Assembly: GCA_049454855.1 (NCBI GenBank)
Contig: JBMUAQ010000002.1
Span: forward strand, 1 to 56,224
DNA from: Ilumatobacteraceae bacterium
GTDB taxonomy: Bacteria; Actinomycetota; Acidimicrobiia; Acidimicrobiales; Ilumatobacteraceae
DNA: 56,224 nucleotides
Direction: 5' to 3'
Position numbers and translations under genes: made by a program. Position 1 is the stretch's first letter; the number at the start of each line of letters is the position of its first letter. Of this stretch, positions 1 to 53,161 are shown piece by piece. The notes beneath the pieces were generated by a model. That model did not search any database. It saw only the letters and a program-made list of their open reading frames with translations, and was not told the origin of the DNA.

Positions 1-1048
1 CGAGCTTCAGCTGCCCGGCCCTGTACATGTCGAGCAGCGCGGGGATGTCGGCGCGGGGGTTCAGGCTGCCGAAGATGGTGCCCTTGACCTCCTTGTTCCA
101 CATCGCCAGCTGGAAGAGGCTCATCTTCACGTCGGTTTCGGTCATGGGCGAGATGGCGGTGACCACGCACGTGCCGCCCTTGCCCACGAGTGCCATGGCC
201 TCCTCCATCATGTCGCCGTGGAGCACGCCGGGGGTGAGGATGACGCGGTCGGCCATCTCGCCCCAGGTGAGCTCGTTCACCGACTGCATCGCCTCGGCCA
301 TCGAAGCGAACGTGTGGGTGGCACCGAACTCCATGGCCTTCTCGCGCTTGAACTCGACAGGGTCGATGGCGATGACGCGCTTCGCACCCGCCATGCGTGC
401 ACCCTGCACCGCATTGATGCCGATGCCACCGATGCCCACCACGACAACCGTGTCGCCGGGCTGGGTGTCGGCGCGCTTCGTGGCCGAGCCCCAGCCGGTG
501 GCCACGCCGCAGCTCACGAGTGCGACGGCCTCGAGGGGGAGGTCGGGCTCCACCTTGATGAGCGACGCCTCTGCAACGCACGCGTACTCGCTGAAGGTGC
601 CGAGCTTGGCCATCATCGTGAGCGGCGTGCCGTCACTGTCGAAGTGACGCGGCGTGCCGTCGGTGATCATGTGGCCCATCAGCGTGCCCGCGCCGAAGTT
701 GCACAGGTTCTGGCGTCCGGTGGAGCAGTAGCGGCAGCGACCGCACGACGGAACGAAGCTTGCCGACACGTGGTCACCCGGCTTCACCGAGGTGACGTTG
801 GCGCCAACCTCCATCACGATTCCTGCGCCCTCGTGGCCGCCGACGAACGGGAAGAACTTCGCGCCCATGAGGTCGAGGAGGTCCTGGGGCGGCACCATGT
901 CGCCGGTGACGAAGTGCTCGTCTGAGTGGCACATGCCTGCCACCTTCCAGTTCACCAGCACCTCGTTCGCCTTCGGCGGGTCGACCTGGATCTCCTCCAC
1001 CTGCCAGGGCTGCTCGAGCCCCCTCAGCACTGCTGCACGTGACTTCAT
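1..1048 (-). CDS. Zn-dependent alcohol dehydrogenase of the mycofactocin-associated (NDMA-dependent, nicotinoprotein) type. The 3' end runs off the window.
   Basis: Absent from the ORF track because there is no stop in the window. My minus-strand translation from the ATG (complement of 1046-1048) reads MKSRAAVLRGLEQPWQVEEIQVDPPKANEVLVNWKVAGMCHSDEH..GGHEGAGIV..SCGRCRYC..VVGIGGIGINAVQGARMAGAKRVIAIDPVEFKREKAMEFGATH. It is clearly a paralog of the next gene. Confidence 0.85.
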   Translation of the reverse strand, partial: MKSRAAVLRGLEQPWQVEEIQVDPPKANEVLVNWKVAGMCHSDEHFVTGDMVPPQDLLDLMGAKFFPFVGGHEGAGIVMEVGANVTSVKPGDHVSASFVPSCGRCRYCSTGRQNLCNFGAGTLMGHMITDGTPRHFDSDGTPLTMMAKLGTFSEYACVAEASLIKVEPDLPLEAVALVSCGVATGWGSATKRADTQPGDTVVVVGIGGIGINAVQGARMAGAKRVIAIDPVEFKREKAMEFGATHTFASMAEAMQSVNELTWGEMADRVILTPGVLHGDMMEEAMALVGKGGTCVVTAISPMTETDVKMSLFQLAMWNKEVKGTIFGSLNPRADIPALLDMYRAGQLKL

Positions 1049-1106
1049 GTTCCTCTGCTCCCCTGTTCCGTGTTTCCTGTGTCGTTCTTCTCGGTGTCGT
1101 TCTGTG

Positions 1107-2222
1107 TCAGTCGTACACCAGGACGCCGCGGATGTTCTTCCCGTCGCGCATGTCCTGGTACCCCTCGTTCACGCCCTCGAGCGGGTACGTCTTCGTGACG
1201 AGCCCGTCGAGATCGAGCAGACCCTCGCGGTACAGACCGGCCAGCTTCGGGATGTCGTGGCGCGGGTTGCCCGAGCCGAACAGCGAGCCGACCAGCTGCT
1301 TCTCCATCAGAGTGAGATCCAGCAGGCTGATGGCCGCTCCCTTGGTCTCGAGCGCGGGGTGGATGTTGGTGACCACCACGCGTCCGCGCTTCGAGGTGAG
1401 GGCCATCGCCTCCCCCATCACGCCGCCATCGCCGACGCCCATGGTCATGATGACCTTGTTCGCCATGGTGCCCCAGGTGACGTCCTGCACCAGCGAGAAC
1501 GCCTCGGCCATCGAGGAGGCAGTGTGCGTGGCACCGAACTCCATCGCCTTCTCGCGCTTGTACTCCACCGGGTCGATCGCAATGATGCGCTTCGCACCCG
1601 CGAGCCGGGCGCCCTGGATGGCGTTCGCACCGATTCCGCCGACGCCCACCACGCACACGGTGTCACCGGGGGTGACGTCGGCCGCATACACGGCCGATCC
1701 CCATCCGGTCACCACGCCGCAGCCGAGCAGGCACGCCTTGTCGAGCGGCATGTCGTTGTCGATCTTGATGCAGGACGCCTCGTGCACCACCGTGTGGTGC
1801 GCGAACGTGCCGAGGAGGCACATGAGTCCGAGGTCCTGGCCGTTCGCATGGTGCCGCGACGTGCCGTCGGCAATCTGACGGCCGATGCCCATCGCCGCCC
1901 CGAGGTCGCAGAGGTTCTGGCGACCGTTCGAGCAGCTGGGGCATTTCCCGCACGACGGGATGAACCCGAACACCACATGGTCACCGGGAGCCAGCCACGA
2001 GACGCCCTCGCCCACCTGCTGGACGACTCCTGCACCCTCGTGGCCGCCGATTATCGGCAGCGCGAACGGGAGGTCGCCGGTGACGAGATGCTCGTCGGAG
2101 TGGCACATGCCCGATGCCGCGATCTTCACGAGCACCTCGCCCGGGCCCGGCGGGTCGAGCTCGATCTCCTCGACGCTCCACGGGGCACCGACCTCCCACA
2201 GGACTGCTGCCTTCGTCTTCAT
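1107..2222 (-). CDS. Zn-dependent alcohol dehydrogenase, mycofactocin-associated (NDMA-dependent, nicotinoprotein) type
   Basis: ORF 1107..2453(-) trimmed to the internal ATG (complement of 2220-2222). Motifs: MKTKAAVLWEVGAPWSVEEIELD, GMCHSDEH, GGHEGAGVV, CGKCPSC, VVGVGGIGANAIQGARLAGAKRIIAIDPVEYKREKAMEFGATH. Divergent from mftA. Confidence 0.9.
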   Translation of the reverse strand: MKTKAAVLWEVGAPWSVEEIELDPPGPGEVLVKIAASGMCHSDEHLVTGDLPFALPIIGGHEGAGVVQQVGEGVSWLAPGDHVVFGFIPSCGKCPSCSNGRQNLCDLGAAMGIGRQIADGTSRHHANGQDLGLMCLLGTFAHHTVVHEASCIKIDNDMPLDKACLLGCGVVTGWGSAVYAADVTPGDTVCVVGVGGIGANAIQGARLAGAKRIIAIDPVEYKREKAMEFGATHTASSMAEAFSLVQDVTWGTMANKVIMTMGVGDGGVMGEAMALTSKRGRVVVTNIHPALETKGAAISLLDLTLMEKQLVGSLFGSGNPRHDIPKLAGLYREGLLDLDGLVTKTYPLEGVNEGYQDMRDGKNIRGVLVYD

Positions 2223-2358: not shown

Positions 2359-2469
2359 ATGGAACAGGACACCCCACAGGAGCCCACGTCCGTGGCCGCG
2401 GAGAGCGACGTCGTCGAGGAACTGCTTGTCGAGGAGATCTCCATCGACGGCATGTGCGGCGTCTACTGA
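2359..2469 (+). CDS. mftA: Mycofactocin precursor peptide MftA
   Basis: 36-aa ORF MEQDTPQEPTSVAAESDVVEELLVEEISIDGMCGVY with the hallmark IDGMCGVY C-terminus. It lies just upstream of mftB/mftC and is hidden inside the spurious track ORF 1885..2469. Confidence 0.9.
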   Translation: MEQDTPQEPTSVAAESDVVEELLVEEISIDGMCGVY

Positions 2470-2509: not shown

Positions 2510-2776
2510 GTGACCGCCACCCTCGATTCCGCCTGCTCGTTGCACCCCAGGGTTGCGGTGAGGCCCGAGCCGTTCGGTGCGCTCGCCTACCACTACGGCA
2601 ACAGGCGGCTCGTGTTCCTACGCCACCCCGACGTGGTCCGCGTGGTCACCTCCCTCGCCGACCACCCCAACGTGCGGGCCGCTCTCGAGGCGGCCGGCAT
2701 CGCCGAGGAGCGTTGGCCGGCATTCGTGAAGGCAATCGACTCGCTCACCCGTTCGGAGATCGTCGATGTCCTCTGA
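2510..2776 (+). CDS. mftB: Mycofactocin precursor-binding chaperone MftB (RRE protein)
   Basis: GTG at 2510, in frame with track ORF 2114..2776. Sequence VTATLDSACSLHPRVAVRPEPFGALAYHYGNRRLVFLRHPDVV... Overlaps the mftC start by 11 nt. Confidence 0.85.
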   Translation: MTATLDSACSLHPRVAVRPEPFGALAYHYGNRRLVFLRHPDVVRVVTSLADHPNVRAALEAAGIAEERWPAFVKAIDSLTRSEIVDVL

Positions 2777-3902
2777 GACACTCGTAGACCAGATGAAGCA
2801 GGGCCTCGACGCCCCCATCTGTCTCACCTGGGAACTCACGTACGCGTGCAACCTCGAGTGCATCCACTGCCTGAGCAGCAGCGGGCGGCGTGACCCGCGC
2901 GAGCTCACCACGGAGCAGTGCGTCGCCGTGATCGACGAGCTGCGCCGGCTGCAGGTGTTCTACGTGAACATCGGGGGCGGCGAGCCGATGATCCGCCGCG
3001 ATTTCTTCGACATCGTGAACCATGCCGTCAACGGCGGCGTGGGCGTGAAGTTCTCCACGAACGGGGCGTTCATCGACCGGAAGGCCGCACGCCGCCTCGC
3101 CTCGATGGACTACCTCGACATCCAGGTCAGTCTCGACGGAACCGACGCGGCGACGAACGACGCCGTGCGCGGCGCCGGCTCGTTCGACACCGCGATGACC
3201 GCGATGCGCAACCTCAGCGACGCCGGCTTCGGCCCGTTCAAGATCTCGGTGGTCGTCACCCGGCACAACGTCGACCAGCTCGACGGCTTCAAGGCCCTCG
3301 CGGATTCCTTCGGCGCACAGCTGCGCGTCACGCGCCTGCGCCCCGCCGGCCGCGGTGCGGATTCGTGGCACCAACTGCACCCCACCAACGCGCAGCAGCG
3401 GCAGATCTACAACTGGCTGCTCGCGCACGGCGAGAACGTGCTCACCGGTGACTCCTTCTTCCACCTGAACGCACTCGGTGACCCGCTGCCCGGGCTGAAC
3501 ATGTGCGGTGCCGGTCGCGTGGTGTGCCTGATTGACCCCGTCGGCGACGTGTACGCGTGCCCGTTCGTGATCCACGAGGAGTTCAGGGCGGGCAACGTGC
3601 TGGCTCCCGGTGGGTTCACCTCGGTGTGGCGGGAGAGCGAACTCTTCCGTTCGCTGCGCGAACCGCAGAGTGCCGGGGCGTGCGCCTCGTGCGGCGCGTA
3701 CGATGCATGCCAGGGCGGCTGCATGGCGGCGAAGTTCTTCACCGGCCTGCCGCTAGACGGCCCCGACCCGGAGTGCGTGGGCGGCGACGGCGAGACACTG
3801 CTTGCGTCGGTGCCCGTTGCCCTGGCGCCGCGCCCTAGCCCCGACCACTCGAAGCCGCAGCGTGCGGCACGGCCCGGCATCCTCGTCGGGGGCGGCAACT
3901 GA
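2766..3902 (+). CDS. mftC: Mycofactocin radical SAM maturase MftC (radical SAM/SPASM)
   Basis: CxxxCxxC motif in WELTYACNLECIHC, then GGGEP. Cys-rich SPASM C-terminus (CGAGRVVCLIDPVGDVYACPF, CASCGAYDACQGGC). Confidence 0.95.
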   Translation: MSSETLVDQMKQGLDAPICLTWELTYACNLECIHCLSSSGRRDPRELTTEQCVAVIDELRRLQVFYVNIGGGEPMIRRDFFDIVNHAVNGGVGVKFSTNGAFIDRKAARRLASMDYLDIQVSLDGTDAATNDAVRGAGSFDTAMTAMRNLSDAGFGPFKISVVVTRHNVDQLDGFKALADSFGAQLRVTRLRPAGRGADSWHQLHPTNAQQRQIYNWLLAHGENVLTGDSFFHLNALGDPLPGLNMCGAGRVVCLIDPVGDVYACPFVIHEEFRAGNVLAPGGFTSVWRESELFRSLREPQSAGACASCGAYDACQGGCMAAKFFTGLPLDGPDPECVGGDGETLLASVPVALAPRPSPDHSKPQRAARPGILVGGGN

Positions 3903-3903
3903 C

Positions 3904-4494
3904 ATGGACATCCTCGTCACCGTCGCTGTCGTCGTTGTCTCCTACTTCCTCGGCACCATCCCGAGCGCGATCGTGGTCGCACGGTCGAAGGGAGTCGACA
4001 TCACCACCTTCGGCAGCGGCAACCCCGGTGCCAGCAACGTGGGACGGGCCCTCGGCGCGAAGTGGGGCATCCTCGTGTTCGTCATCGATGCCGCGAAGGG
4101 TGCGGTGCCCACCGCCCTGATGCTGGGTGACCGCAAGGTTGCATACATGTGCGGCGCGGCCGCGATCGTGGGCCACATCTTCCCCGTCACGCGGCGCCTG
4201 AAGGGCGGCAAGGGCATCGCCACGGGTGGCGGTGTGGTGCTCGCGCTCTTCCCCGCGGTGCTGGCCGCTGCGCTCGCCACCTGGCTGGTGCTGATGAAGA
4301 CCACGAAGAAGGCATCGGTCGGCTCGATCATCGCGGTTCCCGTGGTGGTGGCCGGTCTGTTCGTCGTGGGCCCGCCCGCCTGGGAGATATGGAGCATGGT
4401 CGGCCTCGCCCTGCTCGTGGAGGTGCGCCACCTCGGCAACATCAAGCGCCTCTTTGCCGGGTCGGAACCACCGGTGACGGGAACCCGGTCGTAA
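3904..4494 (+). CDS. plsY: Glycerol-3-phosphate acyltransferase PlsY
   Basis: ORF 3802..4494 trimmed to ATG 3904 (MDILVTVAVVVVSYFLGTIPSA). Motifs GSGNPGASNVGR, GHIFP, GGKGIATGGG. Starts 1 nt after the mftC stop. Confidence 0.9.
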   Translation: MDILVTVAVVVVSYFLGTIPSAIVVARSKGVDITTFGSGNPGASNVGRALGAKWGILVFVIDAAKGAVPTALMLGDRKVAYMCGAAAIVGHIFPVTRRLKGGKGIATGGGVVLALFPAVLAAALATWLVLMKTTKKASVGSIIAVPVVVAGLFVVGPPAWEIWSMVGLALLVEVRHLGNIKRLFAGSEPPVTGTRS

Positions 4495-4504
4495 TCTCGG
4501 GACC

Positions 4505-5128
4505 GTGCTGCCGGTCATCGACTCCTTCTTCGACTGGCTGAAGGACTACTCCGGCTCGCCGTGGTTCTACGTGGTCATCTTCGCGGTTGCGGTGCTCGAC
4601 AGCGTCGTGCCGATCGTGCCGAGCGAGACCATGGTGATCATCGGCGGTGTCAGCGCCGGCCTGCACGACCTCTTCTGGCCGTTCGTGGTGGCGGTTGCGG
4701 CAGGCGGTGCCTTCACCGGTGACCTGCTCAGCTACACCATCGGCAGGAAGGCGTCGAACTGGTTCGAGCGCAGGTACAACAGCACGGAGAAGGGGGCACG
4801 GCGCCTGCAGTGGGCGCGTGACCAGGTGGAGAAGCGCGGCGGCGAGCTGCTGATCACGGCACGCTTCATCCCGGGAGGGCGCACCCTGCTCACCCTCACG
4901 TGCGGCATCACCGGACAGCCGCGACGGTGGTTCATGCGCTGGATCGGTGTTGCCGCCACGGTGTGGGGCACGTACGCCACGATGCTCGGGTTCATCGGCG
5001 GCCGCACGTTCCAGGACAGCCACACGAAGGCATTCCTCGTCGCGTTCGCCACCGCAATCGGTGTCACTGCGTTCAACGAGCTCGTGCGGTTCGTGTGGAA
5101 GCGCACCCGTCGCCGCAGCGCGGCATGA
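4505..5128 (+). CDS. DedA/VTT-family integral membrane protein
   Basis: GTG start. Motifs FAVAVLDSVVPIVPSETMVIIGG and ARFIPGGRTLLTLTCG, typical of DedA. Its stop overlaps the mftE ATG (ATGA). Confidence 0.85.
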   Translation: MLPVIDSFFDWLKDYSGSPWFYVVIFAVAVLDSVVPIVPSETMVIIGGVSAGLHDLFWPFVVAVAAGGAFTGDLLSYTIGRKASNWFERRYNSTEKGARRLQWARDQVEKRGGELLITARFIPGGRTLLTLTCGITGQPRRWFMRWIGVAATVWGTYATMLGFIGGRTFQDSHTKAFLVAFATAIGVTAFNELVRFVWKRTRRRSAA

Positions 5129-5784
5129 GCGCCGACCGCAGGTCGCGGCTTCTCGTGGTGCCGGTCGGTTCGTTCGAACAGCACGGCGCGCACCTGCCCC
5201 CCTCCACTGATTCGCTCATCATCACCGCGGTTGCCGGGGCGGCGTGCACAGGCCACGGGGCCACCCTGGGGCCCACGGTGAACGTGACCGCGAGCGACGA
5301 GCATGCGGGCTTCGCCGGCACCCTCAGCATCGGCACCGACCTCACGGCCGCCACCCTGGTTTCGATTGCGACATCGGCAACGGGGTGGACGGACGGGGTG
5401 TTGTTCGCGAACGGCCACGGCGGCAACGCCGATGCGCTCGCAATGGCAACCGAGGAACTGTCGCTTCGGGGCGTGCCGCACGACGTGTGGTCGCTTCCCG
5501 CATACGACGGTGCCGACATGCATGCGGGTCTCACCGAGACCAGCGTGATGCTGCACCTCCACCCGGACCTCGTGCGCATGGACCTTGCGCGGCCAGGCAA
5601 CACCGGCGGTGCCGCCGACCTCATGCCGGCGATGCGTGCAGGAGGTGTGCGCGCCGTTTCGACGAGCGGGGTGCTCGGTGACCCCACCGGTGCAACCGCC
5701 GCGCACGGCCGAGCCGTGTTCACGATGTGGGTCGGTTCGCTGTCGAACCGCATCGACGGGCAGACGGCAGGGCGGCAGGGGTGA
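5125..5784 (+). CDS. mftE: Mycofactocin peptidase MftE (creatininase family)
   Basis: ORF 4900..5784 trimmed to ATG 5125. Sequence MSADRRSRLLVVPVGSFEQHGAHLPPSTD..ANGHGGN..HAGLTETS. Confidence 0.85.
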   Translation: MSADRRSRLLVVPVGSFEQHGAHLPPSTDSLIITAVAGAACTGHGATLGPTVNVTASDEHAGFAGTLSIGTDLTAATLVSIATSATGWTDGVLFANGHGGNADALAMATEELSLRGVPHDVWSLPAYDGADMHAGLTETSVMLHLHPDLVRMDLARPGNTGGAADLMPAMRAGGVRAVSTSGVLGDPTGATAAHGRAVFTMWVGSLSNRIDGQTAGRQG

Positions 5785-7151
5785 ACCACGACGGCAGCAC
5801 CGTGCTGCATGCCGACCGGCGGTGGTGGCGCTCGCGTGACCGGCACGGTGTGCTCGCCGGGAGCCCGGGAACGTTCATTCGTGTGTCGGAGAACGGCGTC
5901 CCGTTGCTCGACTCCGTGGAGGCCGCCCGTCCGGTCGGGCGCTCGGTGCTGACCTCCCGGCTCGTGGCAACCGGGGCCGCCCACCCCGAGCCTGGCGCAC
6001 CCGCAGCGGCCACCGACGTGACTGTGGTGGTGCCGGTGTTCGCAGACGGAACCGACACCGTGCAGCGTGTACAGCAGGTTGTGGACTCGCTCGCGCCACT
6101 CGCCGTGATCGTGGTGGACGACTGCTCGCCCGTCAACGTCGATGTGCGCCGCGCCACCGTGGTGCGACGCGACGCGAACGGGGGCCCGGGCGCGGCACGC
6201 AACAGCGGCCTCGCGTCCGTGGGCACACCGGTGGTCGCGTTCGTCGACAGTGACGTGCAGGCCACCGCAGCCGACATCCTCCGGCTCACCGGGCACCTCG
6301 CCGATGCACAGGTGTCGCTCGTGGCACCGAGGGTGACCTCGCGTGACGGACGCCGCGCGGTGGAGCAGTACGACGCACTCTGCAGCCCGCTCGACATGGG
6401 CCCGCACCCCGCATCGGTGCGGCCGCGTTCGCATGTTCCCTACGTGCCCACTGCGGTTCTCGTGGCCCGCACCGACATCGCGCGGGAGGGCTTCGACGAG
6501 GGCCTGCGCAGTGGTGAGGACGTGGAGTTCGTGTGGCGCTCGGTGGCCGCGGGCAACGTCTGCATCTATGACCCCGCGGTCACCTGCACCCACGAGCCGC
6601 GCCGCGGCATCGCCGCGATGGTTGCCCAGCGCTTCAGTTACGGCCGCAGTGCCGCGGGCATCGACTCGCGCATGCCGTGGTCTGTTGCACCGGTGCAGGC
6701 GCACGTGTTCCACGTTTCGCCGCTTGCGCTCCTTCTCGCAGGCCAGATGCCGTGGGCAGTCGCAGCCCTCGCGGTGTCGGTGGCGTGGACATTCGTGGCG
6801 CTGCGCGGCATGGGGCTCACGGCCCGCAACAGGCTGGAGGTGGCGCGGCTGTCGGTGTCGTCGGCATCAGGTTCGCTGGCGCGTGCGGTGTGCAGGGAGT
6901 GGTGGCCGGCGTTCGCCGTCGCCTCCGCCTTCGGGCCCTCGTTCACGGTTGCGCTGTTCGTGCCGCTGTCGGCGCTGATGCTCATCGACATCAGGCGTTC
7001 GCGTCCGTCGAACCAGGCGCTCTTCCTTGGAATGCGGATCCTCGACTGGGCTGCCTACGGCGCGGGGGTGTGGGTGGGTGCGGTCGCTCGGCGCTCGCCG
7101 CGCTGTCTGCTTCCGCGTCTCAGCGTGAGGCGGTCTGCACGCGCCGCGTGA
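5781..7151 (+). CDS. mftF: Mycofactocin glycosyltransferase MftF (GT2 domain plus C-terminal TM segments)
   Basis: GTG 5781 overlaps the mftE TGA (GTGA). Motifs VVVPVFADG, VVDDCSP, GGPGAARNSG, FVDSD, GEDVEF. Hydrophobic C-terminal third. Confidence 0.85.
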   Translation: MNHDGSTVLHADRRWWRSRDRHGVLAGSPGTFIRVSENGVPLLDSVEAARPVGRSVLTSRLVATGAAHPEPGAPAAATDVTVVVPVFADGTDTVQRVQQVVDSLAPLAVIVVDDCSPVNVDVRRATVVRRDANGGPGAARNSGLASVGTPVVAFVDSDVQATAADILRLTGHLADAQVSLVAPRVTSRDGRRAVEQYDALCSPLDMGPHPASVRPRSHVPYVPTAVLVARTDIAREGFDEGLRSGEDVEFVWRSVAAGNVCIYDPAVTCTHEPRRGIAAMVAQRFSYGRSAAGIDSRMPWSVAPVQAHVFHVSPLALLLAGQMPWAVAALAVSVAWTFVALRGMGLTARNRLEVARLSVSSASGSLARAVCREWWPAFAVASAFGPSFTVALFVPLSALMLIDIRRSRPSNQALFLGMRILDWAAYGAGVWVGAVARRSPRCLLPRLSVRRSARAA

Positions 7152-7614
7152 TGTCCGCGCAGTCCAGGCACACCGATTCCGGCACGAGGCCCACCTTCAT
7201 CAGCTGCGCGAAGATCGCGCACCCGAGGCAGTAGCCGAGCGCCGCCTCGAGTGTGGCGGCAAACACCAGCATCACGATCGTCACCTGGGAGGCACCCTCG
7301 AGCCCGAGCAACCAGAGCACCGACGCTGTCGCAGTGAACGCGAGACCCATCGACTGGGCGAAGCGCTTCGGCGGCCCGGCGACGAAACGGTGCTCGAAGC
7401 GCAGGCGCGGGGTGACCACGTCGACAGCGAGACGACCGAGCGGGCTGAACCGCGGCCCGGCGAGAACTCGCGCGATGAACCCGTACGTCAGCGGAACGAG
7501 AAGCCATGCCCAACCGGTGACGAGGAATGCGACGCTCATCGCCACCACGCCACCGGCCACGATGCGGGCGCTGGTGTCGTTGACGGGGTTCGGGAAGGAG
7601 AAGATCTTTGCCAC
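7120..7614 (-). CDS. DUF4395-like small membrane protein
   Basis: 164 aa, about 4 TM segments, C-terminal CLGCAIF..CLDC. The convergent 3' end overlaps mftF by 32 nt. Confidence 0.65.
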   Translation of the reverse strand: MAKIFSFPNPVNDTSARIVAGGVVAMSVAFLVTGWAWLLVPLTYGFIARVLAGPRFSPLGRLAVDVVTPRLRFEHRFVAGPPKRFAQSMGLAFTATASVLWLLGLEGASQVTIVMLVFAATLEAALGYCLGCAIFAQLMKVGLVPESVCLDCADITRRVQTASR

Positions 7615-7673: not shown

Positions 7674-8636
7674 GTGGGGGTGACCCTCCGCCTTGCCGTG
7701 CATGAATCGCGGTGGCTGAGCCACGTGCAGTCCACCGCCCGGACCATGCCCGGACTGGTGCCCGTGGTGAAGGGCAACGGGTACGGATTCCGGCGCTGGA
7801 ACCTCATGCCCCTGGCCGGCCAGCTGGCCTCCGAGGTGGCCGTGGGCACCGTGTACGAGGTGCGCGACGTGCCTGCCGGAGTGGTGCCGATAGTGCTCAC
7901 CCCCACCCTGTCGGCCCCGCCCCAGAACCTCCCGCGCAACACGGTTCTCACTGTTGCGAACATCTCGCACCTGAGGGCACTCGTGCACCTCGGGTGGCGC
8001 GGCGACGTGATGGTGAAGCTGCAGTCATCGGCGATGCGTTTCGGGGTTGCCCAGCCCGACTTCCTCCCGCTGATGGAGGAACTGCGCGCCAACCACTTCA
8101 CGGTGCGCGGGTACGCAGTGCACCCACCGCTCGACGGTGACCCGAAGAACCACGTGCGCGACATCGAGAAGTGGCTGCGGGTCATCCCGAACGACGCACC
8201 GCTGTACGTGAGCCACCTCGACCAGGCCGCATATGCGCACGTGCGCGAACGTCACCCCGACCGGTCGTGGAAGATACGGCTCGGCACCGCGCTGTGGCAC
8301 GGCGACAAGTCGATGATGCAACTGTCAGCCGACGTGCTCGACCACCATCCCGTCGAGGCAGGCATGCGCGCGGGCTACAGGCAGACCGCGATTGCCGGCC
8401 CCGGCGAGATCGTCATCGCGGGGTGCGGCACCGCCCACGGCGTGCGCATTCTGGATGACGGCCGCAGCCCGTTCCACTACCAGAAGCAGAGGCTGAACGT
8501 GCTGGAGCCGCCGCACATGCACGTGTCGATGCTGCTCCTCGCACGCGGCAGGCCCGTCCCGCCGGTGGGCGAATGGATCGACGTGCAGCAGCCGCTCACG
8601 CGCGTGCAGGTGGACATCCTGCAGTGGGTGCGCTGA
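7674..8636 (+). CDS. Alanine racemase-like PLP enzyme (short form)
   Basis: GTG start. PVVKGNGYGF (candidate PLP-binding Lys motif) and a racemase-like C-terminal beta domain. Confidence 0.65.
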   Translation: MGVTLRLAVHESRWLSHVQSTARTMPGLVPVVKGNGYGFRRWNLMPLAGQLASEVAVGTVYEVRDVPAGVVPIVLTPTLSAPPQNLPRNTVLTVANISHLRALVHLGWRGDVMVKLQSSAMRFGVAQPDFLPLMEELRANHFTVRGYAVHPPLDGDPKNHVRDIEKWLRVIPNDAPLYVSHLDQAAYAHVRERHPDRSWKIRLGTALWHGDKSMMQLSADVLDHHPVEAGMRAGYRQTAIAGPGEIVIAGCGTAHGVRILDDGRSPFHYQKQRLNVLEPPHMHVSMLLLARGRPVPPVGEWIDVQQPLTRVQVDILQWVR

Positions 8637-13157: not shown

Positions 13158-13238
13158 GCCGTCACTCTACGGTGCGTCCGCATGGGGAACGACGGGCCCG
13201 CTGTGGGAGCATGAGCCGGGACGGTTGATGGGCATTCG

Positions 13239-14399
13239 ATGGTGACGAGCAGGCAGACCGAGAGGTCGCGACAGACCGACCAGAAGGTTGCGGCAAGCGC
13301 GGCCAACGCCGTGCGCCGCGACGGGGTCGACCAGCTTGCCCTCACGCGGGTGGCATCCGATGCGGGCTACAGCAGCGGTGTGATCTACGCACGCTGCGAC
13401 GACCGCTCCGAGCTGATGGTGCTGGCGTGGCAGCGCAGCTTCTGGCCGGCGGTGTCCGGGGTTCTCGAGGCAGCGCTGCATGCGGCAGAGAACCGCGACG
13501 AGAACGCGATGGAGCGCGCGGTGTCGGCGTGGCGTGCCCTGTGCGACCCCGTGTCGGTGCCCGATGCGGGCAGTGCCGTCGAGGTGATCGTGGCCGCCCG
13601 GCGCGACGAGGTGCTCGGCGAGGTCGTGCACCACGACCTCAACATGCTCCTCGCGATGCACGGTGCGGCCCCGGGAACGGACGGACCGCAGCGTCAGCTC
13701 GCGGTGCTGGTGGTGGCCACGCTCCTCGGCACTGCGCTCCTCAACTCCGCCGCGCCCGGCGCCGACCAACCGGCGATTGACCCCGTTCATCTCCTGCGCC
13801 TGTTCTGCCGGCCTCCCGACACGGGTCGAGGCACTGCCGCACCGGGCACCGCGGAGGCCGACGAGTTCGAGCGGCCACGCACGGGAGACGAAGTGCGCGA
13901 CTCCCTCATCGATGCCACCGAGTACGTGATCTCGCGCTCCGGGGTGCACCGCGCCACCGTGTCGCGCATCGCACGAAGGGCAGGCGTCAGCGTGGGCGCA
14001 ATCTACGGGCTCTACGAGAACAAGGAGTCCCTGGTTCTCGACTGCGTGGAGCTGCTCCACCTCCCGCAGACCGAGCGTGACATCGCCGCGTTCACGTCGA
14101 TGAACACGGGGAACCTGCGGGGGACGATAGCCGCGAACCTGCGCGCGCACCTGTCGGCCGAACGCACCCTGTGGAGACAGTTCCGCCTCGAGTGCCTGGT
14201 GGCGGCCCGGCACACCCCGGCACTCGCGCGGATGCTGGGCGAGTTCACCCACGGTCACCTCGAGTCGATCAGCCACGACATCCGCGTGCCGCTTCTCGAC
14301 CACGTGCCGGCCCGCGCCACCATCGTGGGTCTCGCCGTGCTCGCCACGGCCGACTCGACACTCGCCGGAGTCGACTGGAACTGGTTCCCCATCGGCTGA
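13239..14399 (+). CDS. Tandem (two-module) TetR-family regulator
   Basis: Two TetR-type HTH regions in one 386-aa chain: LALTRVASDAGYSSGVIYARC (about aa 33-53) and ATVSRIARRAGVSVGAIYGLYENKESL (about aa 239-265). Each is followed by a ligand-domain-sized segment. Confidence 0.75.
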   Translation: MVTSRQTERSRQTDQKVAASAANAVRRDGVDQLALTRVASDAGYSSGVIYARCDDRSELMVLAWQRSFWPAVSGVLEAALHAAENRDENAMERAVSAWRALCDPVSVPDAGSAVEVIVAARRDEVLGEVVHHDLNMLLAMHGAAPGTDGPQRQLAVLVVATLLGTALLNSAAPGADQPAIDPVHLLRLFCRPPDTGRGTAAPGTAEADEFERPRTGDEVRDSLIDATEYVISRSGVHRATVSRIARRAGVSVGAIYGLYENKESLVLDCVELLHLPQTERDIAAFTSMNTGNLRGTIAANLRAHLSAERTLWRQFRLECLVAARHTPALARMLGEFTHGHLESISHDIRVPLLDHVPARATIVGLAVLATADSTLAGVDWNWFPIG

Positions 14400-14433
14400 A
14401 CAACCGCCGCACCCACTTGGTTAGTGTCGGTGC

Positions 14434-15789
14434 GTGCTGAAGGAACTTGCCGCCCTCGTCCGTGACGGCTCGGTGAGCCCCGTCGAACTGGTGCAGAGGT
14501 CACTCGACCGCATCGACGCTTCGCGCGGCCTGAACGCCGTCACCGCCCTGTGGGCCGAGGACGCCCTGCGCGAGGCGGCTGCGCATCCCCGCACCGGCGC
14601 CCTCGCGGGTCTGCCGGTGCTCGTGAAGGACATGGTGCGCATCGAGGGGCGCCGCACCACCTTCGGCAGCACCCTGTTCGCCGACGCACCGGCCGACACC
14701 TTCTCCGACGTCATCATCGAACGTCTCCGTACTGCCGGTGCAATCATCATCGGGCGCACCAACACCCCTGAGTTCGGGGCCACGGCCGTCACGGTGAACA
14801 CGTTGTACGGGGCCACCCGCAACCCGTGGAACCCGGAGAAGTCGCCCGGTGGCTCGAGTGGCGGCAGCACCGCCGCCCTCGCGGCGGGACTGGTGCCGGT
14901 CGCAACCACCTCCGACGGCGGCGGCAGCGTGCGCGGGCCCGCGAGCGCGTGCGGTCTGGTGGGCTACAAGCCGTCGATGGGTGCCATCGGGCGCAACGCA
15001 CTCCCGCGCTGGATCGAGTTCTCCACGCAGGGATCGAGCGGAACGTCTGTCGACGACGTCATCACCGAGGCATCGGTGACGCACGGTCCCGCACGCGGTG
15101 ACTTCCTGTCGCTGCCGGCGGGCTCGGTGGACCTCACCCCGCGCATGCCGCGCCGTGTGATCGCCTGCCGCACGTACCGCTCCGACATGGACCCCGAGGT
15201 TGAGGAGGCGTACGAGCGAACCCTCGACATGCTGGCCGCAACCGGGGTGGACGTGGTGCGCGCCCCGTCGCCGTCGAACAACTCATCCGTGTACTGGTGG
15301 TTCGTGATCTCCACGGCGGAACTGCACCAGAGCATGCTCGGGCTGTCCGACCGCTGGGGCGAGACGTGCGACTACGTGCAGGGCCAGCTGGAGTTCGGCG
15401 CGAAGGTCACCGCGCCCCAGTACGTGGAGGCGATGCGCATGCGCCACGAGGTGGGTGCACGCTTCGACGACCTCATGGGGAACGACTCGGTGGTGGTGGT
15501 GCCCACGGTGAACTCGCGGGCCTGGCCGGCAGAGGGGCCGATGGCCAGTTCCGCGGGTTCGGTGGAGCACGACACGATGATCGCCCTGAACACGAGCGAC
15601 GCGAACTTCACCGGTCACCCTGCCGTCAGCGTTCCGATGGGTCTCGACCGCCACGGCGTGCCGATGGGTTTCCAGGTCACCGCGCCACGGTTCGGCGACT
15701 CGCTCGCGCTCGGGCTCGCGCAGCACATCGAGCGGCATGCCCCGTGGCAGCGGGTCGCCACCGGTCACGACGCGTTCTGGAACGACTGA
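14434..15789 (+). CDS. Amidase (amidase-signature family)
   Basis: GTG start. Motifs VKD, GGSSGGSTAALAAG, TSDGGGSVRGPAS. Confidence 0.9.
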   Translation: MLKELAALVRDGSVSPVELVQRSLDRIDASRGLNAVTALWAEDALREAAAHPRTGALAGLPVLVKDMVRIEGRRTTFGSTLFADAPADTFSDVIIERLRTAGAIIIGRTNTPEFGATAVTVNTLYGATRNPWNPEKSPGGSSGGSTAALAAGLVPVATTSDGGGSVRGPASACGLVGYKPSMGAIGRNALPRWIEFSTQGSSGTSVDDVITEASVTHGPARGDFLSLPAGSVDLTPRMPRRVIACRTYRSDMDPEVEEAYERTLDMLAATGVDVVRAPSPSNNSSVYWWFVISTAELHQSMLGLSDRWGETCDYVQGQLEFGAKVTAPQYVEAMRMRHEVGARFDDLMGNDSVVVVPTVNSRAWPAEGPMASSAGSVEHDTMIALNTSDANFTGHPAVSVPMGLDRHGVPMGFQVTAPRFGDSLALGLAQHIERHAPWQRVATGHDAFWND

Positions 15790-38911: not shown

Positions 38912-39206
38912 ACGCCCTCGAATGGGTCTCCTCGGCGACCTGCACCGACCACTGCTCGTAGAAATCCTCGCTGCCCCTGCGCTGTGCATCACCGTGGCGC
39001 GGATGGTCGCGCCAGGCATCGTGGGATGCGCGGTCGGCGAACGTGACGATGGTGACGCGTTCGCCGTCCTCGGCGACAAACGTCTTTGCGTCGACGAATC
39101 CGGGCATCGCACGCGCAAGCTCGCTCATCTCCGTTGCCATCGGCGCGTATTCCGCGCGCGCCCCCTCGCGGAGACGGTTGCGGAAGACGGTGACGATGCG
39201 TGCCAT
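38901..39206 (-). CDS. Antibiotic-biosynthesis-monooxygenase (ABM) domain protein
   Basis: Trimmed to ATG (complement of 39204-39206). Sequence MARIVTVFRNRLREG..PGFVDAKTFVAEDGERVTIVTFADRASHDAWR. Confidence 0.75.
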   Translation of the reverse strand: MARIVTVFRNRLREGARAEYAPMATEMSELARAMPGFVDAKTFVAEDGERVTIVTFADRASHDAWRDHPRHGDAQRRGSEDFYEQWSVQVAEETHSRAFTR

Positions 39207-39238
39207 CGCCCGATTCTGCCAGCAGGTATCGTGCCCGC

Positions 39239-39685
39239 ATGACACGCATCGAGGGTGAGTACGTACCGAGCACATCGCAGTGGGTGCGCGACCAGGTCGA
39301 CCTTTACGAGAGAACCGGCGGCCGCGAGGGTTCCACCCTCCTCGACACCGGCATGCCCGTCATCATCGTCACCATGCGCGGAGTGAAGAGCGGTGCGGTG
39401 CGCAAGATTGCACTGATGCGCGTGGAGCACGGCGGCTCGTACGCCCTGGTCGCATCCAAGGGCGGGGCACCCGACAACCCCGACTGGTACGCGAACGTGC
39501 TCGCCAACCCCGACGAGGTCACGGTGCAGGACGGACCGGAACCGTTCTCGGTGCACGTCCGCGAGATCGACGGAGCGGAGTACGACGATTGGTGGCAGCG
39601 CAGCGTTGCGGTGTTCCCGCGCTACGACGATTATCGAAGCAAGACCTCGCGCCGCATCCCGTTGCTGCTCGCCGAACCGGTGTGA
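39239..39685 (+). CDS. Deazaflavin (F420)-dependent nitroreductase-family oxidoreductase (Ddn-like)
   Basis: Trimmed to ATG 39239. Motifs IVTMRGVKSGAVRKIALM, ASKGGAPDNPDWYANV, RRIPLLLAEP. Confidence 0.85.
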   Translation: MTRIEGEYVPSTSQWVRDQVDLYERTGGREGSTLLDTGMPVIIVTMRGVKSGAVRKIALMRVEHGGSYALVASKGGAPDNPDWYANVLANPDEVTVQDGPEPFSVHVREIDGAEYDDWWQRSVAVFPRYDDYRSKTSRRIPLLLAEPV

Positions 39686-43612: not shown

Positions 43613-45922
43613 CTAGTTGGCGTCGACGGCGTGGAGGATCGCGCGCTCGATCTCGGTGCGGTACGGAGCGTCGACGATCTTGCCGCCGTCGACGTCGCAC
43701 ACGTAGAACGAGTCCACCACCTCGTTGCCGAGTGTCAGCACGCGGGCGTGGCGGATGTCGAGGCCGAGGTCGGCCATGGCCTTCGTGACCCGGTGGAGGA
43801 GGCCGAACCTGTCGGGTGCGCGCACCTCGAGGAACGTGGCGTTCGAGGATGCACTGTCGTCGAAGCGCACCGACGGTGCCGACGGCACATCGGCCGACAC
43901 AGCGCGGCGCGGTCTCACGGTGGCAGCACGCTCGGAGAGGCGCGAGCCGAGTGCGAGGCGGCCGCCGAGCGCACGCTCGAGGTTCGCCACCACCGGCTCC
44001 CACTCGATGGCGCCGCTGTAGCCGGGCACCACCCGGAACTGCGACGCCGCCATGCCCTGCTCGTCGGAGTGTGCCTCAGCCCCCAGCACGTCGAGGCCGT
44101 GCAGTGCCATCACCCCGGCAACCTTGCTGAAGGTTCCCGGTGCATCCGGGCTCACCACGGTGACACGGTCGGGCTCGGTGCGGATCGACACGGTTCCTCC
44201 CGCCATCATCTCAAGCACGTTCGCGTCGGGGAACAGGCGCCACACGACCTCCTGCACGTCCCCGCCACCCAGCACGTGACGCACGCGTTCCACCAGCGTC
44301 GACAGCAGCTCGGCCTTCCAGTCACTCCACGCCGACGGCCCGGTGGCAAGTGAGTCCGCCTCGGTGAGTGCGTGCAGAAGGTCGAGCACCGTCTGGGTGC
44401 CGACATTGCCGGCGACCATCGTGATGGTGGCATCGTCGCTGAGGTCGCGCCGAGTCGCAGTGTCGGCGAGCAGGAGATGGTGCTCGATCATCAACGACAC
44501 GATCTCCTGGTCGGCCTCGGTGAGACCCATGCGGGCGCCGAGCGTGCGCCACAGCTCCACACCCACCTCGGTGTGGTCGCCCGGGTAGCCCTTGCCGATG
44601 TCGTGCATCAGTGCACCGATCATCAGTAGGTCGGGCCGCGACACCCGCTCGACGAGACGTGCGGCGTTCGCGGCGGTCTGCCACAGGTGCCGGTCGACGG
44701 TGTAGCGGTGATAGGCGTTTCTTTGCGGCCGGCTGCGCACCGGTGCCCACTCCGGCAGCACCTTCACGATGAGGTTGCGCTGGTCGAGTGCCTCCAGCAC
44801 GGTGATGGCGGCCTCCCCCTCGAGCAGCAGTGCCACGAGATCGTCCGAGGCGCCGGCAGGCCATGGGTCGGGCCACACGGGTGCCGACGAGCCGAGCCGG
44901 TCGAGTGACGAGCGGTCGATGCGGGCGCGGTGCCGCGCCGCGGCAGTGGCCACGCGCAACAGGAGCGTGGGGTCAGAGACGTCCACGTCGTCGGCAAGAT
45001 GGATCTCACCGTTCACCAACTGCACACCGGGTGCGAGGTCGACGGGTACAGGCGAGCGACCGGCGGGCGGGTCGAGGCGCGCCCACGCCTCGTCGGCAAT
45101 CCATGCGACGCTCCGGCCGACACCGGCGATGGCGGCCATGAGGTCGTTGTCGCTCGCGTGACCGCACGCGGCCGCTACCGCTGCCTGGTCCTCGAGGCGG
45201 AGCGTCTCCACGGCACGACCCGACTGCCGGTGGAGAGCAACACGCACGGCGAGCAGCACGTCGTTGCACCGCTCGAGCTCGGCGGTGTCGGCCGCGCCGA
45301 GCGCGAGGCCCGCACGCACGGCCCACCCGAGGGTGTGGATGTCACGCAGACCGCCGAGACCCTCCTTCAGGTTCGGCTCCAGCATGAACGCAACCTCGCC
45401 GTGCTCCGCATGGCGCTCGCGCACCCGTTGGTGCAGCTCCACCAACCATTGCCCGCCGCGACGTGACCAGGATGCGGCCGCGTCCGCCACCACTGCGGCC
45501 GCGAGTGACTCGTTGCCCGCGAGGTGCCGTGCCGTCACGAGCGCGGTGGCGGTGTCGAGGTCGGTGGCGCACATCTGTGCGGTCTCCCTCGGGGTGCGCA
45601 CCGAGTGACCCAGCTTCAGTCCGGCATCCCACGCCGGGTACCAGATGCGCGAGGCGATGTCGGCGATGTTGCGCACACCGTCGTGCACCAGCAGGAGGTC
45701 GAGGTCGCTGTGCGGGGCGAGTTCCTCCCTGCCGTAGCCACCGACAGCCAGCAGCGCGATGCGGTCGGCCTTCTTCTCGCCCTCCACCGCGGCGGCGAAC
45801 ACGTCGCGCAGCCATGTGTCGGTGACGGCCGACAGGGCACGGCATGCCTCGATGCCCCTCAGTGAGAAATCGGAAATCACCTCCGCGCGTGCGGAGAGCG
45901 AGCGTGCAGGAGCGTCAGTCAC
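43613..45922 (-). CDS. glnD: [Protein-PII] uridylyl/adenylyl-transferase GlnD
   Basis: Trimmed to GTG (complement of 45920-45922). Nucleotidyltransferase motif AVGGYGREELAPHSDLDLLLVH, HD domain ALMHDIGKGYPGDH, and two C-terminal ACT-like segments. Confidence 0.85.
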   Translation of the reverse strand: MTDAPARSLSARAEVISDFSLRGIEACRALSAVTDTWLRDVFAAAVEGEKKADRIALLAVGGYGREELAPHSDLDLLLVHDGVRNIADIASRIWYPAWDAGLKLGHSVRTPRETAQMCATDLDTATALVTARHLAGNESLAAAVVADAAASWSRRGGQWLVELHQRVRERHAEHGEVAFMLEPNLKEGLGGLRDIHTLGWAVRAGLALGAADTAELERCNDVLLAVRVALHRQSGRAVETLRLEDQAAVAAACGHASDNDLMAAIAGVGRSVAWIADEAWARLDPPAGRSPVPVDLAPGVQLVNGEIHLADDVDVSDPTLLLRVATAAARHRARIDRSSLDRLGSSAPVWPDPWPAGASDDLVALLLEGEAAITVLEALDQRNLIVKVLPEWAPVRSRPQRNAYHRYTVDRHLWQTAANAARLVERVSRPDLLMIGALMHDIGKGYPGDHTEVGVELWRTLGARMGLTEADQEIVSLMIEHHLLLADTATRRDLSDDATITMVAGNVGTQTVLDLLHALTEADSLATGPSAWSDWKAELLSTLVERVRHVLGGGDVQEVVWRLFPDANVLEMMAGGTVSIRTEPDRVTVVSPDAPGTFSKVAGVMALHGLDVLGAEAHSDEQGMAASQFRVVPGYSGAIEWEPVVANLERALGGRLALGSRLSERAATVRPRRAVSADVPSAPSVRFDDSASSNATFLEVRAPDRFGLLHRVTKAMADLGLDIRHARVLTLGNEVVDSFYVCDVDGGKIVDAPYRTEIERAILHAVDAN

Positions 45923-46382
45923 GGGCGGCCTCCGCCCGGCGGCGTGTGATGACGGTCGCGGCCTTCCAGGCGCCCCACTCGATGCCGGCCCCGTGCACGT
46001 CCTGACCGAGATCGATCCAGGCGAGAGGTCCGAGGGCGTAGGTGTCATCGGGCATCGCGCGGGTGTCGAACTCGTCGCGAACCGGCGCAGCGACACCGAG
46101 CGCGGCGAGTTCCGCGTTCGCGAACCGCGAGGCGCTGCGGATCACGTGCAGCGGGTTCGAACGCTGCTCGTCGGGGTCGGTGGCGAGCAGCGTCGCGAGC
46201 GCGCCCGGCAGCCACGCCGACGCCGCTGCGACGGCTCTTTCCGTGGCCTCGTCGGCGCCGCGGGCACCACCGGCAATCTCCTTCATGCGTGCCCGCAGCC
46301 ACGCCGGGTGTGCGCGCACCACCGCGTCGAGCAGTGCCCGTGCGCGGGGGTCGAGTTCGGTGGACGGTGCCTGTGGGTCCAT
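45915..46382 (-). CDS. Hypothetical protein (155 aa) translationally coupled to glnD
   Basis: Trimmed to ATG (complement of 46380-46382). Its stop lies inside the glnD start region (GTGACTGA, 8-nt overlap). No motif I recognise. Confidence 0.55.
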   Translation of the reverse strand: MDPQAPSTELDPRARALLDAVVRAHPAWLRARMKEIAGGARGADEATERAVAAASAWLPGALATLLATDPDEQRSNPLHVIRSASRFANAELAALGVAAPVRDEFDTRAMPDDTYALGPLAWIDLGQDVHGAGIEWGAWKAATVITRRRAEAARD

Positions 46383-50691: not shown

Positions 50692-50729
50692 TTAACGCTC
50701 CGTGTGCGCCCGTGTAACACACGCGAAAC
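50692..50729 (+). promoter_or_regulatory. Putative GlnR double box upstream of amt
   Basis: TTAAC-n6-TGTGC-n6-GTAAC-n6-GAAAC with exact 5-6-5-6-5-6-5 spacing. The distal pair GTAAC(50714-50718)-n6-GAAAC(50725-50729) matches the actinobacterial gTnAc-n6-GaAAc consensus. It ends 60 nt upstream of the amt ATG. Confidence 0.45.
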
Positions 50730-50789
50730 ACGGGCTTCCTAACTTGCCGGGCAGTCCCACCCGACCACCAACTTCCAGGGGAAACCAAC

Positions 50790-52353
<1,564 letters not shown>

Positions 52354-52384: not shown

Positions 52385-53152
52385 TCAGTTGGCCAGTGAC
52401 CCGCCGTAGATCTGCCACGCCAGCAGGCTCTTCGCCACCAGGCTGAGCACCAGGTACGTCTTCTCGCCGTGCACGTAGTCGGCCCATCGGCCGGCACCGC
52501 GGTACTGCAGCCACTGGTTCAGGCCGAACGAGAAGAAGAGCACCTGCTCCACCACCACGATGAAGAACACGAACGTGGGGACCGTCTCGGCGCCCACCAC
52601 GTTCACCCAGATGCCGATCCACGGCAGGGCACCGGCGACCGTGCCGAACCAGAACGGCTTCATGTTCGTCGTGGTGCGGCCGGGCGGGTTCCCCGACTCC
52701 TGCAGCCACCCGAACAGGATCATGCCCACGTTCGCGCCGATCAAAGCGAGCACCGCGGTGATGTCGGTGATGCCCGAGTACGCCGCGATGAGAATCAGCA
52801 TCAGGGTGGCACTGAACGAGTACTCCACCCAGCGGAACCTGTTGATGCCGGCGCGCAGGCCTGTCTCGTAGCGGTCGCGCCACACGGTGGCGGTGAGCCC
52901 GTGGTCGAGCGCTGCGAGAAGGAGGAACAGCGCCACTGCCGGGCCGACCGGGAGGTCGAGGAACTCTGCCGGCGTGCCGAGCCGCGTGCCGGGAGGGCCC
53001 TCGGGGAAGTTGGAGGTGATGGTGATCGCGAAGTCACCCGCCATCACGGCAATGAGCACGGCCTGCGCGAGGTGCAGTGCCGCCAGCACGATGTTCCATG
53101 TGCGCAGGTTCGAGAGCCGCGCCGGGGGGATGTCGATGGTGCCCGTAGTCAT
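52385..53152 (-). CDS. Heliorhodopsin (7-TM retinal protein)
   Basis: 255 aa. Blocks shared with characterised heliorhodopsins: NRFRWVEYSFSATLM (Glu110, codon 52823-52825), MILFGWLQE, KPFWFGTVAGALPWIG, GEKTYLVLSLVAKSLLAWQIYGGSL (Lys241, AAG at 52430-52432). His27 and His84 are also present. Confidence 0.9.
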   Translation of the reverse strand: MTTGTIDIPPARLSNLRTWNIVLAALHLAQAVLIAVMAGDFAITITSNFPEGPPGTRLGTPAEFLDLPVGPAVALFLLLAALDHGLTATVWRDRYETGLRAGINRFRWVEYSFSATLMLILIAAYSGITDITAVLALIGANVGMILFGWLQESGNPPGRTTTNMKPFWFGTVAGALPWIGIWVNVVGAETVPTFVFFIVVVEQVLFFSFGLNQWLQYRGAGRWADYVHGEKTYLVLSLVAKSLLAWQIYGGSLAN

Positions 53153-53161
53153 GGACCCAAA

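Follow-up and report, generated by a model that had tools for sequence, protein, structure and literature searches.

The biology of mycofactocin, a peptide-derived redox cofactor, has been worked out almost wholly in mycobacteria. The canonical Mycobacterium cluster has the gene order mftA-B-C-D-E-F, and it was noted as early as 2011 that 'most but not all' mycofactocin species possess MftD, MftE and MftR (Haft 2011, PMC3023750). Among Acidimicrobiia, Ilumatobacter coccineus YM16-304, Aquihabitans sp. G128 and Kera 3, and Iamia sp. SCSIO 61187 are given in PMC11778925 as having MftC but not MftG. Here we describe a cluster of another design from an Ilumatobacteraceae bacterium of the class Acidimicrobiia, on contig JBMUAQ010000002.1; the window, i.e. 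the whole stretch of DNA that was analysed, comprises 56,224 nucleotides with a GC content of 68%. As in the canonical cluster, mftA, mftB, mftC, mftE and mftF lie in the same order on one strand with NDMA-type nicotinoprotein dehydrogenase genes adjacent to them, but mftD and mftG are missing, no mftR adjoins, an alanine-racemase-like gene follows mftF, and two genes are placed between mftC and mftE. These are plsY, for a predicted acyl-phosphate:glycerol-3-phosphate (G3P) acyltransferase, and dedA, for a putative membrane-lipid transporter of the DedA family, such that the order read from the DNA is mftA-mftB-mftC-plsY-dedA-mftE-mftF, all on the plus strand. Comparison with relatives leads us to consider it probable that plsY, with or without dedA, both ordinary membrane-lipid genes, was captured long ago by the mycofactocin cluster and is co-expressed with mftABC.

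Family assignments were made by scanning open reading frames (ORFs) against NCBIfam and Pfam and were judged by the curated cut-offs; MftA, MftB, MftC, MftE and MftF each exceed their NCBIfam cut-off, and their genes are clustered. plsY and dedA are packed tightly among them. One nucleotide separates the mftC stop codon (TGA, 3900-3902) from the plsY ATG at 3904 (+1), 10 nucleotides separate the plsY stop codon (TAA, 4492-4494) from the dedA GTG at 4505 (+10), and the dedA/mftE and mftE/mftF junctions are overlaps of four nucleotides (-4), with shared ATGA (5125-5128) and GTGA (5781-5784) motifs, respectively; mftB and mftC share 11 nucleotides (2766-2776). The start of mftA is ambiguous, with the ATG at 2359 giving a product of 36 residues, as in the relative L007 (loci used for comparison carry the prefix L), and the in-frame GTG at 2341 one of 42 residues. 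An independent gene caller gave the same genes on a second contig of identical sequence (L001). The coordinates and junctions quoted in the initial annotation of this DNA are exact, and the operon-like packing that it described is borne out, with the genes on the same strand, junctions that overlap or are of at most 10 nucleotides, no terminator-like site between positions 1900 and 8800, and a tight mftC-plsY spacing that recurs in relatives. No sigma-70-like promoters or intrinsic terminators were predicted on either strand between 1900 and 8800, a scan that tells little here because the organism is a high-GC actinobacterium. As judged from this arrangement, plsY and dedA are probably co-transcribed with the mft genes.

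The mftC-plsY adjacency was observed in 13 of 13 close loci. The best 120 database homologues of the window PlsY are 62-100% identical to it and nearly all are 196 residues long. plsY lies right after mftC in L002-L004 (PlsY 88% identical, dedA present), L005-L007 (67%, dedA absent), L008-L010 (64%, dedA present) and L096 (about 50%, dedA present), as well as in L011-L013, which derive from three metagenome-assembled genomes (MAGs) assigned by GTDB to Ilumatobacteraceae/Actinomycetota. Among loci found from MftC rather than PlsY, L091 has the order mftC-plsY-mftE-mftF, and L092 and L093, in very different surroundings and with neither mftE nor mftF nearby, have mftABC-plsY followed by a gene for a flavoprotein of 620-630 residues, which scores 714-724 bits with TIGR03996, 'mycofactocin system FadH/OYE family oxidoreductase 1' (OYE, old yellow enzyme). 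The mftC/plsY spacing is between -4 and +2 nucleotides in four relatives and 80 nucleotides in L092. Overall, plsY is kept beside mftC over PlsY identities of 48-100%; relatives with an intact mftCDEF and plsY elsewhere, which the initial annotation had named as a pattern that would refute its reading, were not what we found. In L092, the mftABC-plsY-OYE module stands next to a second radical SAM gene (13788-15744) behind which come one or two putative precursor peptides that are rich in Cys and end in motifs such as ...CSICLGMG, the gene call apparently being frameshifted.

A wider view comes from a metagenome scan with MftC, which returned 80 loci (MftC 71-83% identical), 58 of which were usable in that the sequence continues for 700 bp or more past the end of mftC. 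For the classification of the loci, the proteins of the window, the OYE protein and a flavin mononucleotide (FMN)-dehydrogenase probe served as tblastn queries; as samples, the loci are not phylogenetically independent. plsY is present in the cluster in 33 of the 58 loci, and in 24 of 48 lineages after clustering of MftC at 95% identity. It is immediately downstream of mftC in 26 loci and elsewhere within 6 kb in seven; otherwise mftC is followed by OYE genes only (five loci), by mftE or mftF (five), by a true mftD (four), or by unrelated genes, often on the opposite strand and including those for an acyl-CoA dehydrogenase, a methyltransferase and a phosphotriesterase (11 loci). The plsY-bearing loci have GC contents of 52-72%, and the orders seen include mftC-plsY-dedA-mftE-mftF-(DUF4395)-alanine-racemase-like, the same without dedA, mftC-plsY-OYE1 and mftC-OYE1-plsY-OYE2. 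In L121 (7142-12208) the order is mftC-OYE1-plsY-OYE2-dedA, with both OYE proteins above cut-off (656 and 935 bits for OYE1 and OYE2), and plsY adjoins, or lies between, TIGR03996 or TIGR03997 genes in L121, L106, L092 (11834-13723) and L093 (10614-12476). No mftD was found in these OYE-type clusters, several of which also have no mftE or mftF nearby. The FadH/OYE clusters (TIGR03996/TIGR03997) resemble the window in being of Acidimicrobiia type, in the absence of mftD and in the presence of plsY (together with dedA in L121), whereas the window has no OYE gene and carries mftE, mftF and the alanine-racemase-like gene instead. Given that it is observed over many identities and architectures and over GC contents of 52-72%, the linkage is old, widespread and robust to reshuffling.

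Some of these loci have further genes near plsY. Downstream of plsY, L148 (3092-6935) carries genes for a short-chain dehydrogenase/reductase (SDR) and a PRK07798-type acyl-CoA synthetase; a synthetase of the same type is encoded near plsY in L152 (7057-8706); and in L178 (10557-13009) plsY, located 6.5 kb from mftC, heads a run of OYE1, an SDR gene and fragments of AMP-binding genes. The acyl-CoA synthetase and SDR neighbours in these three loci hint at a fatty-acyl theme.

The plsY product has a structurally characterized counterpart in PlsY of Aquifex aeolicus, from the PlsX/PlsY/PlsC phospholipid pathway. In the Aquifex enzyme the G3P phosphate is clamped by Ser35, Arg45, Lys104 and Asn180, the G3P 2-OH is bound by Ser142 and His177, and the acyl-phosphate site is made up of Thr41, His92 and the GGKG(V)A loop, with a T41S mutant keeping about half of the activity (PMC5700162). 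The window PlsY matches this structure (PDB 5XJ5, E=2e-32), exceeds the PF02660 cut-off by far (149.3 versus 24.1 bits) and that of the TIGR00023 equivalog model by a narrow margin (140.5 versus 137.2 bits), and its translation contains the PlsY motifs listed in the initial annotation, i.e. GSGNPGASNVGR, HIFP and GGKGIATGGG. In an alignment of 122 mft-linked PlsYs, made up of 120 homologues of the window PlsY and two further linked PlsYs, residues S35, R45, K104, N180, S142, H177, H92, G102, G103 and G105 (Aquifex numbering) are invariant, and the GGKGIA loop is conserved. The linked PlsYs are, therefore, like the Aquifex enzyme in length, family and all the G3P and acyl-phosphate binding residues, but differ from it in that Thr41 is replaced in most of them by Ser (Ser in 115, Thr in seven), a conservative change that is also present in the window protein. 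Because the phosphate clamp and the 2-OH binders are invariant, the acceptor is predicted to be G3P and not AHDP. The window PlsY is, on the evidence of its sequence, a canonical acyltransferase, predicted to convert acyl-phosphate and G3P into lysophosphatidic acid.

Ratios of nonsynonymous to synonymous substitution rates (dN/dS) for the window versus L002, the PlsYs of which are 88% identical, are 0.087 for mftC, 0.095 for plsY, 0.136 for dedA, 0.22 for mftE and 0.30 for mftF, and the GC content at third codon positions (GC3) of plsY and dedA is like that of the neighbouring genes. Purifying selection and neighbour-like GC3 together imply that the two are functional genes of long residence. 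The linked plsY may well be the housekeeping, and probably the only, plsY of the cell; its description as essential in the initial annotation is an assumption.

With respect to DedA, some members of the superfamily flip undecaprenyl phosphate (PMC11474028), while others distribute phosphatidylethanolamine (PMC10193950). The window protein is like the superfamily transporters UptA and PetA in having a VTT/DedA domain (PF09335, 64.2 bits versus a gathering score of 33.9) and about 200 residues, but, unlike UptA and E. coli DedA, it has equivalog status for neither. It scores 36-45 bits with the E. coli DedA and UptA equivalog models, which have cut-offs of 236-300, including 41.1 against 300 for NF052605 and 35.6 against 250 for NF052604, both UptA models; no solved structure was matched by sequence search. 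In the window and many relatives dedA is directly behind plsY. It is missing from L005-L007, L091, L098, L099 and L150, each of which has mftF, and it is present in L121, where there is no mftF inside the available 6 kb downstream of mftC; dedA therefore appears to track plsY and not mftF. A tblastn search with the window DedA, by which a divergent DedA would go undetected, found no dedA adjoining plsY outside the mft context in 77 non-Acidimicrobiia plsY loci. We propose that 4505-5128 encodes a putative DedA-family membrane-lipid transporter, and that a joint part with plsY in membrane-lipid biogenesis is a simpler reading of the pair than a polyprenyl-carrier role, the activity described in PMC10193950 providing the better fit. 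The link from DedA through polyprenyl-phosphate to MftF that was suggested in the initial annotation is not supported, given that dedA is optional, tracks plsY and encodes a protein with UptA scores far below the cut-offs.

The absence of mftD is a consistent feature of the plsY-bearing clusters. Pfam scans of all large ORFs revealed no FMN_dh/MftD protein in the whole window. Verified MftD proteins are encoded in the related clusters L169 and L171 (676 and 671 bits with TIGR03966), and tblastn with both as probes matched only L159, L160, L161, L165, L169 and L171, all without plsY, the match in L160 being to an FMN dehydrogenase that is more distant, at 36% identity; with these two probes, neither the window nor a single plsY-bearing locus gave a match. 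None of the loci tabulated contains both plsY and mftD. PlsY may be said to occupy the 'mftD slot', as proposed when the sequence was first read, in the sense of its position between mftC and mftE but not in that of function, since PlsY keeps its G3P/acyl-phosphate site. We considered PlsY as an MftD substitute and rejected it, because the full site is kept and flavin chemistry is impossible for PlsY. Where mftD is missing from the cluster, the amine-to-ketone step must therefore fall to something else, encoded either elsewhere or by another gene of the cluster.

Another gene of the cluster, that for the alanine-racemase-like protein (320 residues), tracks mftF and follows it in every locus of the mftE-mftF form with enough sequence, e.g. 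at 13291-14250 in L008, where it overlaps mftF by four nucleotides, and at 11325-12107 in L096. Its dN/dS is 0.096, a sign of strong purifying selection. A profile of six orthologues matches Mycobacterium tuberculosis alanine racemase (E=3e-4), with the pyridoxal phosphate (PLP)-lysine motif VVKGNGYGF aligned. No NCBIfam model matches the protein, no solved structure was matched by a sequence search with the single protein, and a structure model made from the single sequence was discarded for its low confidence (pLDDT 41). The alanine-racemase-like protein is a possible candidate for the missing MftD amine-to-ketone step.

The usual setting of plsY in the class is different. In a homologue search over 1.84 billion cluster representatives, PlsYs form a continuum below about 57% identity to the window PlsY, and the nearest PlsY clusters at 50% identity consist without exception of proteins from Acidimicrobiia or Acidimicrobiales MAGs. 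Three plsY genes of Acidimicrobiia without linkage to mft, encoding P0246 (48% identical to the window PlsY), P0427 (44%) and P0253 (45%, abundant in marine samples), share a context consisting of a Zn-ribbon gene on the opposite strand, plsY, moeA, moaA and moaC; the loci are L095 (7564-12288), L097 (7579-11180) and L179 (7590-11352), with an NTP-transferase gene between plsY and moeA in the P0246 locus (L095). In this class, plsY probably had its ancestral place in the Zn-ribbon/plsY-moeA-moaA-moaC arrangement; the linked plsY sits in a cofactor operon instead. Neither moeA, moaC nor the Zn-ribbon gene was found beside linked plsY genes, and there is therefore no intermediate state for a relocation. 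In a neighbour-joining tree the smallest clade with all linked PlsYs also includes ordinary ones, and there is no separate deep paralogue branch. Orthologous relocation of the housekeeping plsY fits this tree, the support of which is weak, better than does an old specialised paralogue.

Our preferred explanation, an ancient capture, may be set out as follows. In the ancestor of a large Acidimicrobiia group (Ilumatobacteraceae and relatives), plsY would have left the Zn-ribbon/plsY-moeA-moaA-moaC locus and become fixed directly downstream of mftC, with dedA joining it in some branches of the clade. The two genes would be read from the mft transcript and be translationally coupled, and the initiation of membrane-lipid synthesis would therefore be co-expressed with mftABC. 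We infer that, after this relocation, the link has been retained either because an important gene came to depend on the mft transcript or promoter, or because the co-expression is useful; neither PlsY nor DedA would mature mycofactocin or replace MftD. The neutral operon capture suggested in the initial annotation is excluded by the relatives as a recent event but is possible as an ancient, retained one. The comparative data refute the idea that plsY-dedA came to lie between mftC and mftE in this contig only, be it by a recent neutral rearrangement or by an assembly error. Dozens of independent contigs, which stem from a variety of samples and assemblers, show the same order at PlsY identities as low as 48%, and plsY and dedA are under strong purifying selection; we found no point in support of the idea and give it practically no credence. 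Several observations weigh against capture as the full explanation. The PlsY tree is weakly resolved, with the same clade in 18 of 200 bootstraps, and one capture is indistinguishable from several; co-transcription of plsY and dedA with the mft genes is read from spacing only; the link outlasts reshuffling (mftC-plsY-OYE1, mftC-OYE1-plsY-OYE2-dedA, and plsY-OYE1 6.5 kb away), as is typical of functionally connected genes; and plsY is kept in clusters about as often as mftE and mftF.

The last two of these observations bear on the main rival, a functional coupling, which we hold to be possible although on the unlikely side, in which PlsY, with or without DedA, carries out its normal chemistry as a true member of an Acidimicrobiia mycofactocin regulon for acyl-lipid metabolism. 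Mycofactocin oxidoreductases (FadH/OYE 1 and 2, NDMA-type alcohol dehydrogenases and SDRs) and acyl-CoA synthetases would process fatty alcohols and acyl chains, PlsY would channel the products into phospholipid, and selection would therefore keep plsY in the cluster. Consistent with this, plsY stays with mftABC and curated FadH/OYE genes through several rearrangements and across the range of GC contents, and SDR, acyl-CoA synthetase or AMP-binding genes occur near plsY in L148, L152 and L178; however, the SDRs score under the cut-off for mycofactocin-coupled SDRs, 11 of the 58 loci have mftABC with unrelated downstream genes and no plsY, shared ancestry and general family synteny could account for much of the pattern, and we know of no biochemical link of mycofactocin to acyl-phosphate or G3P. 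The mft operon of Mycobacterium smegmatis is de-repressed by long-chain acyl-CoA via MftR, according to PMC8728441 as cited in PMC11778925, which favours coupling. A more ambitious and, in our view, doubtful version has Acidimicrobiia mycofactocin wired both physically and functionally to phospholipid synthesis, with PlsY (and DedA) as a true member that either accepts acyl groups from mycofactocin-dependent oxidation or builds a lipid environment or anchor for an MftD-less pathway, in which the alanine-racemase-like PLP enzyme or the FadH/OYE flavoproteins would replace MftD. A direct role in making the cofactor, with DedA recycling polyprenyl-phosphate for MftF, or with a PlsY paralogue acylating or lipid-anchoring a mycofactocin intermediate in replacement of the MftD step, appears very improbable. 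The tightly coupled location between mftC and mftE, the failure of plsY and mftD to co-occur in one locus, the hydrophobic C-terminal region of MftF and the flipping of undecaprenyl phosphate by some DedA proteins (PMC11474028) are all in keeping with it, but the invariant G3P clamp and 2-OH binders point to G3P as acceptor, dedA is absent from several mftF clusters yet present in L121, the DedA protein is far under the UptA cut-offs with phosphatidylethanolamine transport suiting its pairing with plsY better (PMC10193950), and there are mftABC-plsY-OYE clusters without mftE or mftF nearby.

The features of the cluster and its flanks are collected in Table 1. The full-length NDMA-dependent alcohol dehydrogenase is 79-97% identical in relatives with the mftE-mftF form of the cluster (types A and B). 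The tandem TIGR03989 dehydrogenases, divergent from mftA, are followed in relatives (3885-8047 in L002) by genes for a MoxR AAA+ ATPase and a VWA protein, a block that is syntenic throughout the lineage. The DUF4395 gene, which overlaps the 3' end of mftF by 32 nucleotides, is found in most relatives with the mftE-mftF form; in L008-L011 and L138 it is absent and the alanine-racemase-like gene abuts mftF.

Table 1. Genes of the mycofactocin cluster and its flanks in the window, with the family matches on which the assignments are based.
Feature	Position	Strand	Evidence and remarks
NDMA-type (nicotinoprotein) Zn alcohol dehydrogenase, second copy, truncated by window start	1..1168	-	TIGR03989, 495.9 bits (cut-off 440); upstream of mft in relatives too
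NDMA-dependent alcohol dehydrogenase, divergent from mftA	1107..2222	-	TIGR03989, 555 bits (cut-off 440)
mftA, precursor peptide, C-terminal IDGMCGVY	2359..2469	+	TIGR03969, 50.8 bits (cut-off 25)
mftB, chaperone	2510..2776	+	TIGR03967, 98.9 bits (cut-off 33)
mftC, radical SAM/SPASM maturase	2766..3902	+	TIGR03962, 617.5 bits (cut-off 265)
plsY, predicted acyl-phosphate:glycerol-3-phosphate acyltransferase	3904..4494	+	TIGR00023, PF02660, PDB 5XJ5
dedA, DedA/VTT-family membrane protein	4505..5128	+	PF09335, 64.2 bits
mftE, peptidase	5125..5784	+	TIGR03964, 229 bits (cut-off 172)
mftF, glycosyltransferase (GT2, hydrophobic C-terminus)	5781..7151	+	TIGR03965, 283.5 bits (cut-off 280); PF00535
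DUF4395 gene, convergent with mftF	7120..7614	-	PF14340, 128 bits
Alanine-racemase-like fold-type III PLP protein	7674..8636	+	PF01168, 40 bits

Elsewhere in the window, a protein of 394 residues with a C-terminal TetR domain (13215-14399, plus strand) has a weak, sub-threshold N-terminal match to MftR2, an alternative mycofactocin regulator (NF038211, 24 bits versus 285); its gene is followed by an amidase gene (14425-15789, plus strand), and the two genes occur together in L005 and L008 as well. Further features are an F420H2-dependent quinone reductase family gene (39194-39685, plus strand), a glnD-like uridylyltransferase gene (43616-46141, minus strand), an amtB-glnB pair (50718-52353, plus strand) and a heliorhodopsin gene (52388-53161, minus strand; PF18761, 311 bits) that adjoins a PQ-loop transporter gene.

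The component families described here are all known. In the literature searched, mycofactocin is never mentioned together with PlsY, DedA, glycerol-3-phosphate acyltransferase or Acidimicrobiia, and neither the conserved association with plsY nor a cluster design in which MftD is lacking and an alanine-racemase-like gene is present appears to have been described. The overall results indicate that a large and environmentally abundant actinobacterial class has another design of mycofactocin cluster, one without MftD and with a conserved phospholipid acyltransferase gene in the operon. If the link is functional, a peptide-derived redox cofactor would be tied to lipid metabolism, which would fit with the acyl-CoA control of the mycobacterial operon. 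If it reflects hitch-hiking only, a housekeeping-type membrane gene would have become locked in an accessory operon, which matters for annotation and for the prediction of essentiality. Either way, the missing MftD step becomes a concrete, testable question.

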